The notes beneath the pieces are model-generated. The model searched no databases and was not told the DNA's origin. It worked only from the letters and a program-made list of their open reading frames with translations. Positions 4,035-61,908 of a stretch of 64,000 nt of DNA are shown one piece after another. The number at the start of each line of letters is the position of its first letter. The stretch's first letter is position 1. The position numbers were made by a program, and so were the translations under genes. The stretch is from an uncultured Candidatus Saccharibacteria bacterium (GTDB lineage Bacteria > Patescibacteriota > Minisyncoccia > Phycocordibacterales > DATDWN01), in contig CAZTQY010000001.1 in NCBI GenBank assembly GCA_964616425.1, forward strand, positions 23,008 to 87,007, read 5' to 3'.

Positions 4035-4060
4035 TGTAATAGAAATTTTACATAAAGGAA

Positions 4061-4108
4061 ACTCCGCACGTTTTGACGGAACGTGGAAGTCCCCAAAACG
4101 TGCGGAGT
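4061..4108. terminator. Perfect 14-bp inverted repeat (actccgcacgtttt / aaaacgtgcggagt) with a 20-nt loop. Likely terminator of the small GC-rich peptide gene and 5' UTR structure of the DedA gene
   Basis: Seen directly. It lies between the stop of the 4127-4257 gene and the DedA start. Confidence 0.5.
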
Positions 4109-4126
4109 GAACCAAACTGCGACCGA

Positions 4127-4257
4127 CTAGGCGTTGAGCATCATTGCGACTCCAATGATGACCAGGACGACGAGCAGGACGACCCAGAGCTTTCCTGAGT
4201 GTCGTTCGCTGGTCGAAGTCGTACCAGTCTCCACTGACGATCTTGAAATTGAGTTCA
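4127..4257 (-). CDS. Small GC-rich gene encoding a 43-aa peptide with a C-terminal transmembrane helix (toxin-like, tail-anchored). Function unknown
   Basis: Encodes MNSISRSSVETGTTSTSERHSGKLWVVLLVVLVIIGVAMMLNA. A strong SD (gggagga) sits 4 nt before the ATG. Uses GC-rich codons unlike the neighbours. The longer track ORF 4127-4330 has no RBS at its start. Confidence 0.4.
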
Positions 4258-4365
4258 TACCGTCCTCCCTATATAAAATACTAGACCTTTTGAAATCTAG
4301 AGTCAACAATAAAACCTTATGGTTTAACATAAGGCTTTATTGTGTTTAATATGTTTTTATGACAG

Positions 4366-39730: not shown

Positions 39731-39976
39731 ATGAACGCTAATGGGTACCACCAACACGGAGAACTCCTCTTCCGTATGGCAAGAGGAAAGCCCGTAGAGG
39801 TCAAGGCCGGTGATTCGATCATCATGATCGACCAAACCGTCATGAAAGACGGTGTAGTCGTAAAGGTGACCGCAATTCACCTACCCTGTGCCGAACGTGG
39901 ACTGCACGTTCTGGACCTCTTCGTTCCAAGGAGACGCATGGTGGTGAGAGCCACCATACACGAGGTCAGTCACTAG
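39731..39976 (+). CDS. Hypothetical protein encoded by a GC-rich mini-islet
   Basis: Strong SD caggagggtca before the ATG. GC content far above the neighbours. Followed by its own terminator. Confidence 0.5.
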   Translation: MNANGYHQHGELLFRMARGKPVEVKAGDSIIMIDQTVMKDGVVVKVTAIHLPCAERGLHVLDLFVPRRRMVVRATIHEVSH

Positions 39977-41504: not shown

Positions 41505-41891
41505 TCAAGCGTTGATCAGACGTTGGCGCTGGAAAGCGAACTCCTCCATCAGTCGCACGAGCGACCTCTTGAAAGAATTGCCTTTGCTTGCTTTGGTGAC
41601 AAACCCGTTGAACGGGTGCTTGGGCTGTTCCTTCATGGTGAACATGCCAAAGCTCAACACGACGAGCTTGCTGTTGATGGATTTCATCTTGTCCGCGAAC
41701 TTGCGATCAGACTCAGATGTTCCAACGACCAGCAATTGAAGAGTGTTCTCCGTAGTCACTCTGCAAGCCTCCTCCTCATTGCTCGTCACGATGTAGTCTT
41801 CGCTCGACACCACGTCTGAGTGAGAAAGATCCTCCTTCAACCTCTCGACCAGTTCTTCTGAAAGCTGGTAAATAACAATCGCTGGCGACAT
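41505..41891 (-). CDS. Hypothetical protein encoded by a GC-rich mini-islet
   Basis: SD aaaggaggtggtc immediately before ATG(MSPAIVIY). The longer track start at 41921 lacks an RBS. GC-rich. Confidence 0.5.
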   Translation of the reverse strand: MSPAIVIYQLSEELVERLKEDLSHSDVVSSEDYIVTSNEEEACRVTTENTLQLLVVGTSESDRKFADKMKSINSKLVVLSFGMFTMKEQPKHPFNGFVTKASKGNSFKRSLVRLMEEFAFQRQRLINA

Positions 41892-41948
41892 GACCACCTC
41901 CTTTGAAAAAATACCACACACATCATGAAGGCCTAATTAATTCTAACT

Positions 41949-53448: not shown

Positions 53449-54441
53449 GTGTCTACGACTGAAGGCGGCAACGCCCCGCTCGTCACGATACTCGTCCCCT
53501 GTTACCAGTACGGACGATATCTGAAAACTTGTCTGGATGGAATTTTCGCCCAGACGATAATCAACGAGATTTCATTTGAAATCATCGTCATCAACGACGG
53601 CTCAACAGATGAGACCGACGAGGTGATGTATGAATTCAATGATCCTCGGATTCGTTACATCCGTCTACCTGAAAACCAAGGCATCTGTAATGCGCTAGCA
53701 CAAGGCATTACACTGGCAAAAGGAAAGTACTTTGCCAGGATTGATGCTGACGACAGGTGGAAGCCACACTTTCTCGAGGAAGTACTACCGATCCTCGAGA
53801 AACACCCTGATGTTGGACTTGTGTACGGCGATGTAATACACATCGACAAACACAACAACGTCATCCAGGATCCGAGCACGATCTGCTCGATCATCCACCA
53901 CAACGGAAGAGACTTCAAAGGAGACGAATTCTTTTTCCAGCTTATGGGATGCAGTATTGGTACAGCTGGTGTGATTGGCAGAACTTCTGCCCTTCGTCCA
54001 GCAATACCTTTCCCAAGTAGTTTCACTTGGGGCTACCCATCTGACTGGTGGTTGCATATGGTGGTTCTAAGGGATCACCAGATGTACTACACCAGACGCG
54101 TCATCGGCGAGTACAGAATGCACGCCGAAAGCATGACGAGTCAGGGAAAAATTGTTTCTTCGTCCTACGAAGAAACAATGATCGGGGCTTTGGACATTCT
54201 CTTTAGCGAGGGAAGACGAGCGAGTGAACGTCGAAAGTCCTACGCGTACATGTGGACTAGTGTGGGTAACATACATTTCGAAAGAAACTATGGAGCCTGC
54301 GCAAGAAGAGCCTACATGAAAGCTGTGATGTACCGACCGGATTACATTTTCCGGAAGTCCATCGTCCGGCACTTTCTGTCGAGTCTTCTGCCAAGGCCTA
54401 TGTACGAGGTAATAAAGAAAGGGGTAAAGAAAATGTTCTGA
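53449..54441 (+). CDS. Family 2 glycosyltransferase; GC-rich, putative horizontally acquired
   Basis: ILVPCYQYGRYLKTCLDGIFAQT, INDGSTDETDEV and RIDADD are GT2 DxD motifs. GTG start preceded by aaaggagg. GC content clearly above the neighbours. Confidence 0.8.
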   Translation: MSTTEGGNAPLVTILVPCYQYGRYLKTCLDGIFAQTIINEISFEIIVINDGSTDETDEVMYEFNDPRIRYIRLPENQGICNALAQGITLAKGKYFARIDADDRWKPHFLEEVLPILEKHPDVGLVYGDVIHIDKHNNVIQDPSTICSIIHHNGRDFKGDEFFFQLMGCSIGTAGVIGRTSALRPAIPFPSSFTWGYPSDWWLHMVVLRDHQMYYTRRVIGEYRMHAESMTSQGKIVSSSYEETMIGALDILFSEGRRASERRKSYAYMWTSVGNIHFERNYGACARRAYMKAVMYRPDYIFRKSIVRHFLSSLLPRPMYEVIKKGVKKMF

Positions 54442-54485: not shown

Positions 54486-55517
54486 CTATTTTTGACTGAT
54501 TATATTTACCAAAGCAAGTTCTAGTGGCAGAGATGGAATGTACGCTCCTGTTGTTTTTTCGTAAGCGCCTAAAAGCTCAACTAGATCAGATGAAGATAAA
54601 CTTCCCTCTCCTTTGGCCAACGTACTGACAAATTCAAACTCAACTTCTGACAACTCGTCTTTTATAATATTTCCAGCATTAAAACGAACGAGGAGAAAAG
54701 CTCTAGACATGTGCAAAATCAATTTCAAAAAGACAGACATGTCTATATTTTGACTTACGGCTTTTTTTATAGAACCCAAACCAAGTTCCAAATTTTTGTT
54801 TACGATAGAAGTGATGACATCATTTACTAGGTCTATGGCTGGAGCTCCAGTTACTAAACGAACATCATCCTCACTAACTGCTGTTTGTTTTTTACTTTTA
54901 CTATAAACCAAAATCTTTTGGAGAATTCCCAAAGTATCACGGAATGAACCATCACCCAAAAGAGCAACTAAATCTGATGATGCGTCATCTAATGTAAAAC
55001 CTTCTTTCTTTGCGACGTTAGTTACAACTTTTTTCAAGACATCTTGTGATGGTTTTTTGAATGTATAAGTTTCGCAACGAGAAAGCACTGTTTCAGGTAT
55101 TTTGTGAGTCTCTGTTGTCGCAAGAATAAATACAACATGAGATGGAGGCTCCTCCAAAGTTTTTAACAAAGCATTTGCAGCGGACTTTGAGAGCATGTGA
55201 ACTTCATCCAAAATGTAGACTTTGTATTTTGACTCGAAAGGTAAAGTAAATACAGAATCATTGAGATTACGAATATCATCAACGCTTGTATTTGATGCTG
55301 CATCTATTTCATAAATATCATTTTTAGATGTGCCTATTGCGTCAGCAAATATTCTAGCAATAGAAGTTTTTCCTGTGCCACGTGTTCCAGAAAAAAGATA
55401 TGCGTGAGAAATATCTCCGGACTTTGCCTCAGCGTCTAAAACTTTAACTATATGATCCTGTCCAACAACTTCAGAAAACTTTCCTGGCCTGTATTTTCTA
55501 TATAATGCTTCTGACAT
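54486..55517 (-). CDS. dnaX: DNA polymerase III gamma/tau subunit (short, 343 aa)
   Basis: YRPGKFSEVVGQDHIV, Walker A GTRGTGKTS, and DEVHML. Confidence 0.85.
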   Translation of the reverse strand: MSEALYRKYRPGKFSEVVGQDHIVKVLDAEAKSGDISHAYLFSGTRGTGKTSIARIFADAIGTSKNDIYEIDAASNTSVDDIRNLNDSVFTLPFESKYKVYILDEVHMLSKSAANALLKTLEEPPSHVVFILATTETHKIPETVLSRCETYTFKKPSQDVLKKVVTNVAKKEGFTLDDASSDLVALLGDGSFRDTLGILQKILVYSKSKKQTAVSEDDVRLVTGAPAIDLVNDVITSIVNKNLELGLGSIKKAVSQNIDMSVFLKLILHMSRAFLLVRFNAGNIIKDELSEVEFEFVSTLAKGEGSLSSSDLVELLGAYEKTTGAYIPSLPLELALVNIISQK

Positions 55518-55519
55518 AT

Positions 55520-56165
55520 TAACTAGTATATCTTATTGTGGATTTTGGACAAAACAGTAACGCGAATGGGGGCCGTCAGATGACGGCCCCCTAAAAAAAA
55601 TTTACCCGTAACGAGGCATGGCATCCTCCAGTTTACGACTGTTTGAGGTGGCACCGCGCCACTACGGTCTTAGGCTATGAAGCCTAGCTTCACTGCTGCC
55701 GTGCCGGCCCAGCTCGTGTTGAACACAGTTGATATTCCCTACCAAGGGCGAGCTCTTAGGCATCCATTATGTCAACTGGTCTAACTAAACAGTATCACAT
55801 CCAAAAAACATACGTCAATTTTTTGTATTAAAAAAGTCGGGCGCAATGCATCCCGACGAACTGGGCCACCAGCAGTTGAAAGACTTGTCTACAACTGCCG
55901 GTGGCCAATCTACCTAGCCTCCCCAATACGTGAGGAGTATGATTGCCAACCAAGAGTCTCCCAAAACCCTCGATAAGCAATGAAATGTGGATGTGGCTCA
56001 AGCCCACACAAGACTGATTAGCCCCGTCAGTATTGTAAGGCGATCCAAACTTTCCACAGAGATCCAGACCGTGCATCCATTGGTACTTTTTGGGAAAAGC
56101 ACCACACGGCGGACCATCTGACCATCATTATATACTTTTTACATGAAAAGTCAATGAGGTCAGTG
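55520..56165 (-). ncRNA. GC-rich ~640-bp non-coding region with strong secondary structure, probably containing one or two structured ncRNAs. Identity unresolved; SRP RNA upstream of dnaX is one candidate
   Basis: No credible ORF. GC content far above the genome background. Minus-strand terminator gtcgggatgcattgcgcccgac + UUUUUU at about 55827-55860. A 16-bp imperfect stem at 55864-55910. Conserved ffs-dnaX synteny in many bacteria. Confidence 0.35.
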
Positions 56166-56169
56166 GCTT

Positions 56170-57171
56170 TTAAAAGTTATCTTTTATGTAAACTTCTACA
56201 ATATCAGAAATTTCTTTTGCATCTTTGGCTTCCATCAATCTAACTCTAAGTTCTTTTGCACCATCCCATCCGTTTACGTAAGCCTTATAATGTTTTTTCA
56301 TTATTGCAAAACTTTTATGAGAAAGAATGCTCTCAAAAAGTTTTGTGTGTTCCACCATAACATGGAGTCTTTCTGGTATCGAAATATCATCCCTTTTAAT
56401 TCCAACATTAAACAACCAAGGATTTCCAAAAATAGCTCGCCCGAGCATTACACCATCACAACCAGTCTCTATAACTTTTTTCTGTGAATCATTCAAATCC
56501 AAAGCATCACCATTACCAAAAATTAAAGTTTCGCTTTTGACTCCATTTGAATCAACAAAATCATTTCGAATCTCAACCGCTCTTTTTATATGTTCCCATC
56601 TTGCAGGAACCAGTGACATTTCTTTTCTTGTCCTTGCGTGGACAGTTATTACCGCAGGGTTTGTCTCCAATATTGCAGGTAACCAAGTTTCAAGTTCATT
56701 TTTATTGTAACCAATTCTAGTTTTTACACTTACTGGAATATTTTTACCATTTTTACTTGCACCTCTTTGGGCAGCACGAATTATTTCTTGGGCAAGTTTT
56801 GGATTTTTTATTAGACCAGCACCAGCACCTTGTTTTTCAATACTTTTATCAGGACAACCCATATTTATATCTATTCCATCAAAACCCAAATCCACTGCAA
56901 GTTCAGCAGCTTTTTCCATCATCTCTGGCTTACTTGTAAAAAATTGCGCAACTATAGGGCGCTCTTCTTCAGTAAATGCCAGGTCTTTTATCAATGCGTC
57001 ATATCCCCCCAGAAAAAGTCCGTCTGCGGAAACAAACTCAGTCCAAGTCACATCTGGTTTTCCGTATTTTGCAATAATACTTCGAAAAGCAGGATCAGTA
57101 ACATCCGCCATTGGAGCCAATACCATTATTCCGTCTGGTCTATTATTTTTTAAATCTTTCCAAAAATTCAT
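56170..57171 (-). CDS. dusB: tRNA-dihydrouridine synthase
   Basis: VLAPMADVTDPAFR N-terminal motif, TIM-barrel Dus family. Confidence 0.85.
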   Translation of the reverse strand: MNFWKDLKNNRPDGIMVLAPMADVTDPAFRSIIAKYGKPDVTWTEFVSADGLFLGGYDALIKDLAFTEEERPIVAQFFTSKPEMMEKAAELAVDLGFDGIDINMGCPDKSIEKQGAGAGLIKNPKLAQEIIRAAQRGASKNGKNIPVSVKTRIGYNKNELETWLPAILETNPAVITVHARTRKEMSLVPARWEHIKRAVEIRNDFVDSNGVKSETLIFGNGDALDLNDSQKKVIETGCDGVMLGRAIFGNPWLFNVGIKRDDISIPERLHVMVEHTKLFESILSHKSFAIMKKHYKAYVNGWDGAKELRVRLMEAKDAKEISDIVEVYIKDNF

Positions 57172-57174
57172 ACT

Positions 57175-57975
57175 CTATATATTCAAAAATAAACTTGCTA
57201 ACGTAACTGGACCAACGCCACCAGGCACAGGAGTAATAAGCCCTGCTTTATCACTACAACCTGGATCAACATCCCCTACTATCTTTCCGTTTTGTTCACT
57301 GGTACCAGCATCTATTAGAATTACACCTTCTTTTATCATGTCTGGTTTTATCATATATGGAGAGCCTGCACCAGATATGATTATGTCTGCAGAATATATT
57401 AACTTTTTACTCAAACTCATATCTGTATTTTTATCTATTACCTTAAACTGGATGTTTTTTGATTTGAACATTGCACTAACTGGCTCTCCAACCAGCTTTC
57501 CAGTTCCAATAATCAGAATTTCTTTATTTTCAATTTCAATATTATAAAATTCCAATATCTCTGAAATCGCACGAGATACTGGAGGAACTTTCTCTATTGA
57601 TTTGTTTTTATACAGAGTCTTTGCTTTGTCGCTCAAAACATCTATATCTAGTTCTACTGGAACCATATTTAACACTTCCTGGGTTGGTAAATCTTTAGGT
57701 AGTGGAAGCTGTATAACCATACCCACTACATCTCTAGATGTAATATCTCTTATGACTTTTTCAACTTGGTCAAAAGATAGAGACTCGGGATGAGCTTCTA
57801 CTGTAGTTTTTATTCCCAAAGATTCTGCAAACCTGCATTTCATTGCAACAAACTGTTTACTTGCAGGATCATTACCAAAAATTACAAAACAAACCTCTTT
57901 TTTGGGTTTATCTTTTAAATTCAATATTATTTTTTCTTTTAGCTTGGCTGAGACTAGCTTTCCATCGGCTATCAT
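57175..57975 (-). CDS. folD: Bifunctional methylenetetrahydrofolate dehydrogenase/cyclohydrolase
   Basis: FolD-wide similarity, with QLPLP and GxGxxVG motifs. Confidence 0.85.
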   Translation of the reverse strand: MIADGKLVSAKLKEKIILNLKDKPKKEVCFVIFGNDPASKQFVAMKCRFAESLGIKTTVEAHPESLSFDQVEKVIRDITSRDVVGMVIQLPLPKDLPTQEVLNMVPVELDIDVLSDKAKTLYKNKSIEKVPPVSRAISEILEFYNIEIENKEILIIGTGKLVGEPVSAMFKSKNIQFKVIDKNTDMSLSKKLIYSADIIISGAGSPYMIKPDMIKEGVILIDAGTSEQNGKIVGDVDPGCSDKAGLITPVPGGVGPVTLASLFLNI

Positions 57976-61641: not shown

Positions 61642-61908
61642 ATGATACTCGCACTTGAAAAAATGTCGGTGGATGTCCCGATTTCCGCCGGAGACAAGTT
61701 GCAGTGGAACAACGAAGGTAAGTTCATCACTGCACAGGCGCAAAGTGGGAAACCACTCTATTGGCAGGGCAACCAGTTGAAGAAGATGGCTAGCTGGTTG
61801 CGGAGCGATGAACAGTTCGACAGCTATGTGATGATTCTGGCAGAAATACTCAATCTCAAGGCTGTCCTCGTTGAAGGTGAACGTCACAGGACGTATAGAT
61901 TTGAGTGA
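61642..61908 (+). CDS. Hypothetical protein encoded by a GC-rich mini-islet
   Basis: SD ctggagggttc before the ATG. GC-rich. Followed by a hairpin at 61926-61957. Confidence 0.45.
   Translation: MILALEKMSVDVPISAGDKLQWNNEGKFITAQAQSGKPLYWQGNQLKKMASWLRSDEQFDSYVMILAEILNLKAVLVEGERHRTYRFE

Follow-up and report, generated by a model that had tools for sequence, protein, structure and literature searches.

This analysis concerns a spacer of 652 bp at positions 55518-56169 of a 64-kb stretch of contig CAZTQY010000001.1 (the window, i.e., the whole 64,000 nucleotides analyzed, in whose coordinates positions are given unless a related locus is named). It separates a gene for a DnaX-like protein of 343 amino acids (aa) (54486-55517, minus strand; DNA_pol3_delta2/AAA, E 8e-35) from a dus gene (56170-57171, minus strand; E 9e-61), next to which lies a folD-like gene for a tetrahydrofolate (THF) dehydrogenase/cyclohydrolase (57175-57975). 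According to its DnaX relatives, the organism belongs to the Parcubacteria in the candidate phyla radiation (CPR), among Zambryskibacteria/Paceibacteria-like genomes, and the DnaX of the closest species representative is 86% identical. The spacer is predicted to carry two RNA units on its minus strand, here termed unit A, on the dus side, and unit B, on the dnaX side.

For comparison, ~185 related loci were used, which come from genomes representing species, from metagenome contigs and from contigs with a gene for a close homologue of DnaX; they are designated L001, L002 and so on. In 200-nt windows, the guanine-plus-cytosine (GC) content of the spacer is 0.465-0.515 (47-51%), as compared to 0.33-0.38 (33-38%) in the flanking genes, which agrees with a preliminary description of this DNA that had put it well above the coding neighbors. 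The same description had seen no plausible open reading frame (ORF) in the block, and Pfam, tblastn and translation checks bear this out: an 82-aa ORF at 55828-56076 has no Pfam match and no tblastn match among 185 related loci, and the six-frame ORFs of the spacer gave no conserved translation, such that a coding potential of the spacer was rejected. There is no second copy of the spacer within the 64-kb window, and a template/variable repeat pair as in diversity-generating retroelements was rejected, the region being unrepeated in the window. Phage, plasmid and IMG/VR collections contain no sequence similar to the spacer.

A consensus scan identified three sigma-70-type promoters on the minus strand, with 11/12, 9/12 and 9/12 matches, and only one weaker match (9/12) on the plus strand. 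The promoter of unit A (56127-56154, minus strand) consists of TTGACT, a 16-nt spacer and TATAAT, matches the consensus in 11 of 12 positions and begins 16 nt past the dus stop codon; a homologous promoter is visible upstream of the unit A homologue in L161. The promoter of unit B (55791-55818, minus strand) has TTGACG, a 16-nt spacer and a TG-extended GATACT, and its sequence is kept in L001, L002, L005, L167-170 and L172-176. The third promoter, that of dnaX (TTGTCC, a 16-nt spacer and TATACT, 55552-55525, minus strand), lies so close to the dnaX ATG at 55517 that only 7 nt, with no Shine-Dalgarno sequence among them, separate TATACT from the start codon. This TATACT-N7-ATG layout is conserved in L001, L002, L161, L162, L165, L169 and L170. 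Since a Shine-Dalgarno sequence is missing and TATACT stands 7 nt before the ATG, the dnaX mRNA is probably leaderless.

At its 3′ end, unit A carries an intrinsic terminator (55830-55857, minus strand), in which the hairpin GUCGGGAUGCAUUGCGCCCGAC at 55857-55836 is followed by U6 at 55835-55830. A terminator had already been placed at about 55827-55860 on this strand in the preliminary description, and it is real, though our consensus terminator scan missed it because the scan assumes a plain stem closed by a loop of 3-8 nt. The other prominent hairpin of the spacer is of a different kind. In unit B, a U8 run (55600-55593) precedes the hairpin GGGGGCCGUC-loop-GACGGCCCCC (55591-55568; feature 55568-55600, minus strand), after which AUUCGCG follows on that strand. 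On the plus strand, UAAAAAAAA follows the GGGGGCC stem, and the terminator scan found none there. Lacking a U-run 3′ of the hairpin, the GGGGGCC stem was rejected as an intrinsic (Rho-independent) terminator, as had been stated before; its position is 55568-55591 and not, as given then, 55567-55592. Together, these signals support the earlier proposal of two RNA units on the minus strand that are parted by a real terminator; here, their lengths come to roughly 300 and 225 nt.

Unit A, a predicted structured RNA of ~290 nt (55830-56120, minus strand) whose 5′ end is deduced from the promoter, consists of five hairpin domains and the terminator. Domain D1 (56057-56120, minus strand), delimited by the fold and by comparison with L161, forms a long hairpin of irregular shape. 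Its 3′ asymmetric loop, AAUGGAU and then GCA (56081-56072), is conserved, with AAUAGGAUGCA as the equivalent in L161. Domain D2 (55988-56056, minus strand) includes GGAAAGU (56054-56048), CAAUA and CUUGAGCCAC, and domain D3 (55937-55981, minus strand) is a hairpin followed by the conserved single-stranded GCAAUCAUAC (55946-55937). Domain D5 (55864-55906, minus strand) is a long near-perfect hairpin, GGCCACCGGCAGUUG...CAACUGCUGGUGGCC. It corresponds to what had been described as a 16-bp imperfect stem at 55864-55910; the stem is present, but it spans 55864-55906 and has 15 perfect pairs and 3 inner pairs. A D5-like long hairpin just before the terminator is also found in other RNA cassettes at related loci.

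Among the ~185 related loci, unit A has one homologue, L161:1043-1375, with a local-alignment z of 4.4 (0/300 shuffles score as high). The anchors AAU(A)GGAUGCA, CAAUA, UUGC and GCAAUCAUAC are conserved, single-stranded and in identical order in the two RNAs, with matching hairpins between them. All 62 of the 62 hand-matched pairs are canonical in both RNAs, a result that is partly built in, because the helices were matched by hand on folds predicted separately for each sequence; 35 of the 62 differ on both sides, and in the upper stem of D3, 8/11 pairs have changed on both sides. Since the two folds were predicted independently, the weight of the L161 evidence lies in the shared order of anchors and helices. 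Hand matching was used in place of a MAFFT-based alignment, which shifts the helices by 1-2 columns. A covariance model built on a single sequence, that of the unit A core, was uninformative, as it missed even the L161 homologue. In L161, another RNA gene separates the unit A homologue from dus.

Unit B is a predicted structured RNA of ~225 nt (55560-55785, minus strand), both ends of which are deduced. Three further lineages have a homologue, at L002:3727-3966 (L086 being the same), L172-176 and L185:305-543. Its conserved core (55630-55783, minus strand) contains AAUGGAUGC at 55768-55760 and has a mean column identity of 96% over the four lineages. This value applies to the 5′ 150 nt of the unit, of which the first ~95 nt do not vary at all in three lineages. 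When the window is compared with L002, nucleotide identity is 94.3% in the unit B core, as compared to 74.7% in dnaX and 81.4% in dus. The ~40 nt after the core are variable with indels, and the terminal hairpin has a stem that is identical in the four lineages and a loop that varies. Because the adjacent ~40 nt vary while the core stays 96% identical, the pattern points to selection on the core rather than to a recent transfer of the whole cassette. So little variation in the core suggests that it makes many sequence-specific contacts, be it with a protein, a ligand or a second RNA. Covariation in unit B is minimal, with two compensatory pairs, several wobble-compatible changes and few disruptions; the core itself shows one compensatory pair and several changes that remain compatible with wobble pairing.

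The variable 3′ part of unit B harbors a possible Shine-Dalgarno sequence, GGAGG (55629-55625), and a mini-ORF of five codons (55619-55602; feature 55602-55629, minus strand), which in the window reads AUG CCU CGU UAC GGG UAA. The Shine-Dalgarno-like sequence stands 5-8 nt before the mini-ORF, and the ORF ends 10 nt ahead of the hairpin. Shine-Dalgarno sequence, start codon, frame and stop codon are kept in all four lineages despite substitutions and indels, with the predicted peptides MPRYG, MRRYG, MRRYG and MRCCG. This conservation is ambiguous, since the same changes would also fit a UCGUAA/UUACGG helix.

A 9-mer, AAUGGAUGC, occurs on the minus strand in the conserved parts of both unit A (56081-56073) and unit B (55768-55760). 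The minus strand of the window has no further copy of it. As a meaningful link between the two units it is not statistically compelling, and a chance match is not unlikely (~0.25 expected).

With respect to folding, the whole region has a z of -7.5 on the minus strand and -6.0 on the plus strand. On the minus strand, unit A alone reaches -5.2 (0/200 shuffles fold as well) and unit B alone -2.7 (1/200). The minus strand thus is the better-folding strand, and all signals are on it, which supports the preliminary description in taking the minus strand as the RNA strand. In a sliding-window control, most dnaX and dus windows have a z between -2.3 and +1.1, but values of -4 to -5.8 are also found in a window at the dus 3′ end (which still takes in part of unit A), in the glycosyltransferase gene and in parts of the folD-like gene. 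Since some coding windows reach such values, folding scores alone are not specific here. The glycosyltransferase gene (GT2 family, 53449-54441, plus strand) has a GC content of 46-50% and looks foreign; its antisense strand also reaches a z of -3 to -5, for which reason a low z in this window is not specific for RNA genes. Thus, neither GC content nor folding energy is by itself proof of an RNA gene in this genome, and the case for two units rests on the three promoters, the terminator and the conservation in relatives.

The synteny of dus and dnaX is held across Parcubacteria. In many distant members, the spacer between them is 3-40 nt long, as compared to 230-1340 nt in the near clade, where it is also GC-rich. 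In this island, cassettes follow one another in tandem. A cassette comprises a promoter of the TTGAC type, a GC-rich body and a long hairpin that is nearly perfect, to which a separate terminator is usually added. At least nine unit families can be told apart by sequence, each of them in few genomes only. The slot immediately upstream of dnaX holds unit B, an unrelated RNA (B′) with a true terminator, or a small CxxC protein of 94-106 aa. In the preceding slot, there is an RNA of ~300 nt that is of the A-type (as in the window), the L3-type or the L69-type, among which no relation was detectable. Compensatory changes were seen in 23/72 predicted pairs of the L69-type and in 11/56 of the L3-type.

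L172 and L173 have an identical DnaX protein and flanks that are 96.6-99.8% identical, but carry unrelated RNAs at the slot of unit A: an L3-type body of ~265 nt (L172:301-564) and an L69-type body of ~295 nt (L173:264-558). The breakpoint lies just inside the shared 5′ end, after GUUGAGCGGAA. Other relatives have a single cassette, which is one RNA only in L162 and one small protein only in L165. Because of the swap between L172 and L173, and because some close relatives have one cassette only, the cassettes are regarded as optional at this locus and as exchanged between lineages.

Two possible kinships within the island were rejected. Unit B shows no relation to the B′ RNAs of L162, L167 and L169 (alignment z of -1, and no match with the unit B model), which are hence treated as distinct families, and unit A was not assigned to the L69-type, since the L69-type model (R3) gives no match on the window, on L161 or on L3-type loci. 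A UGAAGCAC-plus-hairpin arrangement common to unit A and L69-type RNAs is a by-eye observation only.

The island holds further families. An RNA family termed R1 (L001:2990-3172, L161:790-972, L169:975-1155 and L182:about 990-1160) has the core GAUAGNGUNAGYCCUCAACUCCGUCAGGGCACCAGAAAU followed by two covarying hairpins, and a second, R2 (L002:3198-3362 and L170:1190-1372), is closed by a 14-bp helix in which the 5′ end pairs with a segment just before the 3′ hairpin and terminator. Neither family has an Rfam match. The small CxxC...CxxC proteins (starting at L001:3571, L161:1419, L170:1444 and L177:1115) are 25-49% identical to one another and fast-evolving, have no significant Pfam match, are found in genomes without unit B and are absent from the window.

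Taken together, we consider it probable, at roughly 60%, that the block comprises two independent genes for stable structured non-coding RNAs, which would represent new, narrowly distributed and probably accessory families. Unit A (~290 nt) would start at the near-consensus sigma-70 promoter past the dus stop codon, fold into five hairpins and end at the hairpin followed by U6. Unit B (~225 nt) would be transcribed from its own promoter, with a 150-nt invariant core, a variable 3′ segment and the terminal GC hairpin, and dnaX would then be read from the third promoter, probably as a leaderless mRNA. The two would be lineage-restricted cassettes of an island that, in one Parcubacteria clade, has widened a dus-dnaX junction which elsewhere is tight, with cassettes gained, lost and swapped between close relatives. 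Both would accumulate as abundant stable RNAs and act in trans, by binding proteins or as regulators, instead of controlling dus or dnaX in cis, and both may be accessory rather than housekeeping RNAs.

Several points weigh against this interpretation. The transcript ends are placed by sequence motifs only, and unit B has no canonical terminator, which leaves room for read-through into dnaX. For unit A there is only one homologue, for which the matching of helices was manual and the finding that all of them pair is in part built in. Unit B is too conserved for covariation, and it yielded two different consensus folds. Some coding DNA of the window has a comparably low fold z, and the trans-acting and accessory roles are inferred.

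An approach known as GC-IGR/DIMPL finds orphan structured non-coding RNA motifs in long GC-rich intergenic regions (GC-IGRs) of bacteria rich in adenine plus thymine (AT) (PMC6429828, PMC8723152). The spacer resembles such motifs in being GC-rich, strongly folding and non-coding in an AT-rich genome, and in having stand-alone transcription signals. However, it matches no described motif (Rfam 15), and it differs in that several unrelated RNAs stand in tandem as interchangeable cassettes and that one island slot shows allelic replacement between near-identical strains. In kind, the two units are ordinary, as structured RNA genes of a bacterium that lie in a GC-rich spacer while the genome is AT-rich; they are new in family, and unusual in their organization and in the speed of replacement. 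Literature searches returned nothing describing these RNAs.

With respect to the alternatives, the two units might act in cis, unit B as a 5′ leader or interference element of dnaX and unit A as a structured 3′ untranslated region (UTR) of dus. Unit B could then be a ligand- or ribosome-sensing attenuator that works through the five-codon mini-ORF, the U8 run and the hairpin. It is indeed always located immediately upstream of dnaX, no canonical terminator lies past it, and the Shine-Dalgarno sequence, five-codon ORF and stop codon kept in four lineages stand directly ahead of the U-run and hairpin. In these respects it resembles leader-peptide attenuators, in which a short ORF and then a hairpin precede the regulated gene; here, a Shine-Dalgarno sequence and a five-codon ORF that ends 10 nt ahead of a strong hairpin precede dnaX. 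Unlike in such attenuators, the U-run of unit B is 5′ of the hairpin, a separate dnaX promoter of the leaderless type lies past the hairpin, and the conservation of the ORF can also be explained by an RNA helix. The dnaX promoter with its TATACT-N7-ATG layout is kept in genomes with and without unit B, the slot of unit B is taken elsewhere by a small protein gene or by an unrelated RNA that has a true terminator, and a read-through transcript would have a dnaX start codon without a Shine-Dalgarno sequence. As regards a riboswitch or another cis-regulatory leader of dnaX, the observations thus point both ways, with the separate leaderless-type promoter on one side and the missing canonical terminator and the possible mini-ORF on the other. 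As for unit A, no terminator parts it from the dus stop codon, but it has its own 11/12 promoter, and its homologue in L161 does not adjoin dus. The suggestion in the preliminary description that the region might simply be a long 3′ UTR of dus is thus unlikely as the main explanation, and we regard cis action of the two units as unlikely overall.

A further alternative is that the units are highly diverged housekeeping RNAs below the thresholds of Rfam, unit A being the RNase P RNA and unit B the signal recognition particle (SRP) RNA or 6S RNA. Both units have strong promoters like those of stable RNAs, and the unit B core is conserved like a housekeeping RNA. The Rfam check that had been proposed for the block gave no family match for either unit. 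With Rfam 15 (4227 families), the whole 64-kb window contains only one tRNA and one c-di-GMP-II riboswitch at the gathering threshold, and at E<=10 the region 55400-56300 yields only microRNA and snoRNA matches at chance level. Unit A searched alone (316 nt, E<=10) showed no RNase P, SRP, 6S or transfer-messenger RNA (tmRNA) match, nor did the sister cassettes. A tmRNA was rejected, as ARAGORN was negative in the window and in 50 related loci and Rfam gave no match. For 6S RNA, there was no match at E<=10. Instead of the rod-like 6S fold with its large central bubble, unit A has five hairpins in a row and unit B gave branched consensus folds, though this exclusion is soft, since 6S covariance models are weak across phyla.

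In Bacillus subtilis, the SRP RNA gene (ffs/scr) lies upstream of dnaX, and unit B would likewise be a small stable RNA gene that immediately precedes dnaX, shares its strand and has a promoter to itself. Unlike the B. subtilis RNA, unit B is restricted to four lineages. A helix 8 (domain IV) motif, with its GNAR loop and its symmetric and asymmetric loops, was not detected, and the GGCAGCAG stretch of unit B reads GGCAGUGG in L002. Neither Bacteria_small_SRP nor Bacteria_large_SRP matched at the gathering threshold (64 kb) or at E<=10 (55400-56300), and SRP RNA was thus rejected. Moreover, searches at the Rfam gathering threshold found SRP RNA beside dnaX in 0/36 related Parcubacteria loci and gave tRNAs only. 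The suggestion, made in the preliminary description, that the block might hold ffs is therefore not supported, and because no SRP RNA stands at these 36 loci, the positional argument does not apply to this clade.

RNase P RNA was also tested by hand, because RF00010 gives very low scores for part of the RNase P RNAs of CPR bacteria, some of which needed thresholds near 5 bits (PMC8172020), whereas our listing at E<=10 shows no scores under ~12 bits, such that a very diverged form could go unlisted. Unit A is of suitable appearance, with ~290 nt and a GGAAAGU-containing segment after the 5′ hairpin. By eye, its segments GUGGAAAGUUUGGAUCGCC, CUUGAGCCACAU plus hairpin and CUAGGUAGAUUGGCC, or, put as modules, a UUGAGCCAC-hairpin module and a UAGGUAGAUUGG segment, resemble what we take to be the consensus of CR-I, J11/12-P12 and CR-IV. 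None of the CR-I-, CR-IV- and J11/12-like resemblances survived the comparison with L161. The GGAAAGU that had been noted at about 56050 on the minus strand is present at 56054-56048, but it is not conserved in the sole homologue of unit A, where AGGAUGGCUGUG takes its place, such that the CR-I sequence GGAAAGUCC is not retained. A AAGUUUGG/CCGACUU pairing can be drawn in the window and has no counterpart in L161; the only partner of this segment that the two RNAs share is the U-tail of the terminator. A P4 3′ strand or P1 pairing common to unit A and L161 was not found, and the sister RNAs have 4-15 nt between the long 3′ hairpin and the terminator, which is too short for P4 and P1 strands. 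RNase P RNA (RF00010/RF00011) was hence rejected for unit A, which in addition differs from it in being optional at the locus and replaced by unrelated RNAs in close strains. Absence or replacement of the cassettes in close relatives would be unexpected for single-copy essential genes, and a housekeeping role for either unit thus appears quite improbable.

That the spacer is non-functional foreign or decayed DNA, made up of remnants of GC-rich small genes or mobile elements in a permissive spacer, might be suggested by the GC-rich small ORFs, GC-rich glycosyltransferase gene and IS110-family element of the window, by the differing island content between strains and by relatives with a GC-rich small protein gene in the slot of unit B, but it is very unlikely, given a unit B core that is 96% identical where genes have diverged by 19-25%, unit A helices that are kept through 35 double changes, two intact promoters, and the lack of repeats in the window and of similarity to phage, plasmid and IMG/VR sequences.

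Against the background of two independent RNA genes, one may speculate further about the island as such. The slot of unit A seems to evolve like a conflict or compatibility locus, and slot replacement between near-identical strains is a pattern typical of loci for immunity, compatibility or host interaction. It is conceivable, though we give it only a slim chance, that the island is shuffled by recombination, with strongly expressed, unrelated structured RNAs of ~300 nt and small zinc-ribbon proteins replacing one another at fixed slots. If true, this would be a stand-alone RNA-based strain-specific system in CPR bacteria, in which unit A would be one allele and unit B the conserved partner RNA.

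A number of other features of the window deserve mention. A block of 1.6 kb with 55% GC (32967-34573) contains a gene for a transposase of the IS110/IS116/IS902 family (33192-34487, minus strand; PF02371, E 2.7e-6) and, beside it, a GC-rich non-coding flank of ~225 nt (32967-33191), in which the guide (bridge/seek) RNA of the element could be encoded. This gene is ~21 kb away from the spacer and has no sequence in common with it; an RNA borne by a mobile element or phage (IS110 bridge RNA, retron or omega RNA) was rejected for the spacer, whose neighbors are dus and dnaX and which has no match in the phage, plasmid and IMG/VR collections. The riboswitch found in the window is a c-di-GMP-II aptamer at 31155-31238 (minus strand; 61.5 bits vs. 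a gathering threshold of 53.5), here in a Parcubacteria genome. Small GC-rich ORFs at 39731-39976 (plus strand), 41505-41921 (minus strand), about 61642-61900 (plus strand) and about 4035-4270 (minus strand) are preceded by GGAGG as ribosome-binding site and lack a significant Pfam match (there is one weak hit, below the cutoff); their strong GGAGG sites contrast with the lack of such a site at the dnaX start in the same genome. The window as a whole has 37% GC, and high GC marks small accessory genes as well as RNAs.

For the organism, ~650 bp (and up to 1.3 kb in relatives) devoted to strongly promoted, predicted non-coding RNAs would be a notable investment, given the tiny genomes of CPR bacteria, and the conservation of the 150-nt core of unit B exceeds that of the adjacent essential genes. 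At the same time, the result guards against annotating such blocks as SRP or RNase P RNA from their position or from short motifs. If transcription is confirmed, the two units would be new RNA classes from a poorly understood part of the tree of life, and the dynamics of the cassettes would provide a tractable example of structured RNA genes that turn over rapidly.

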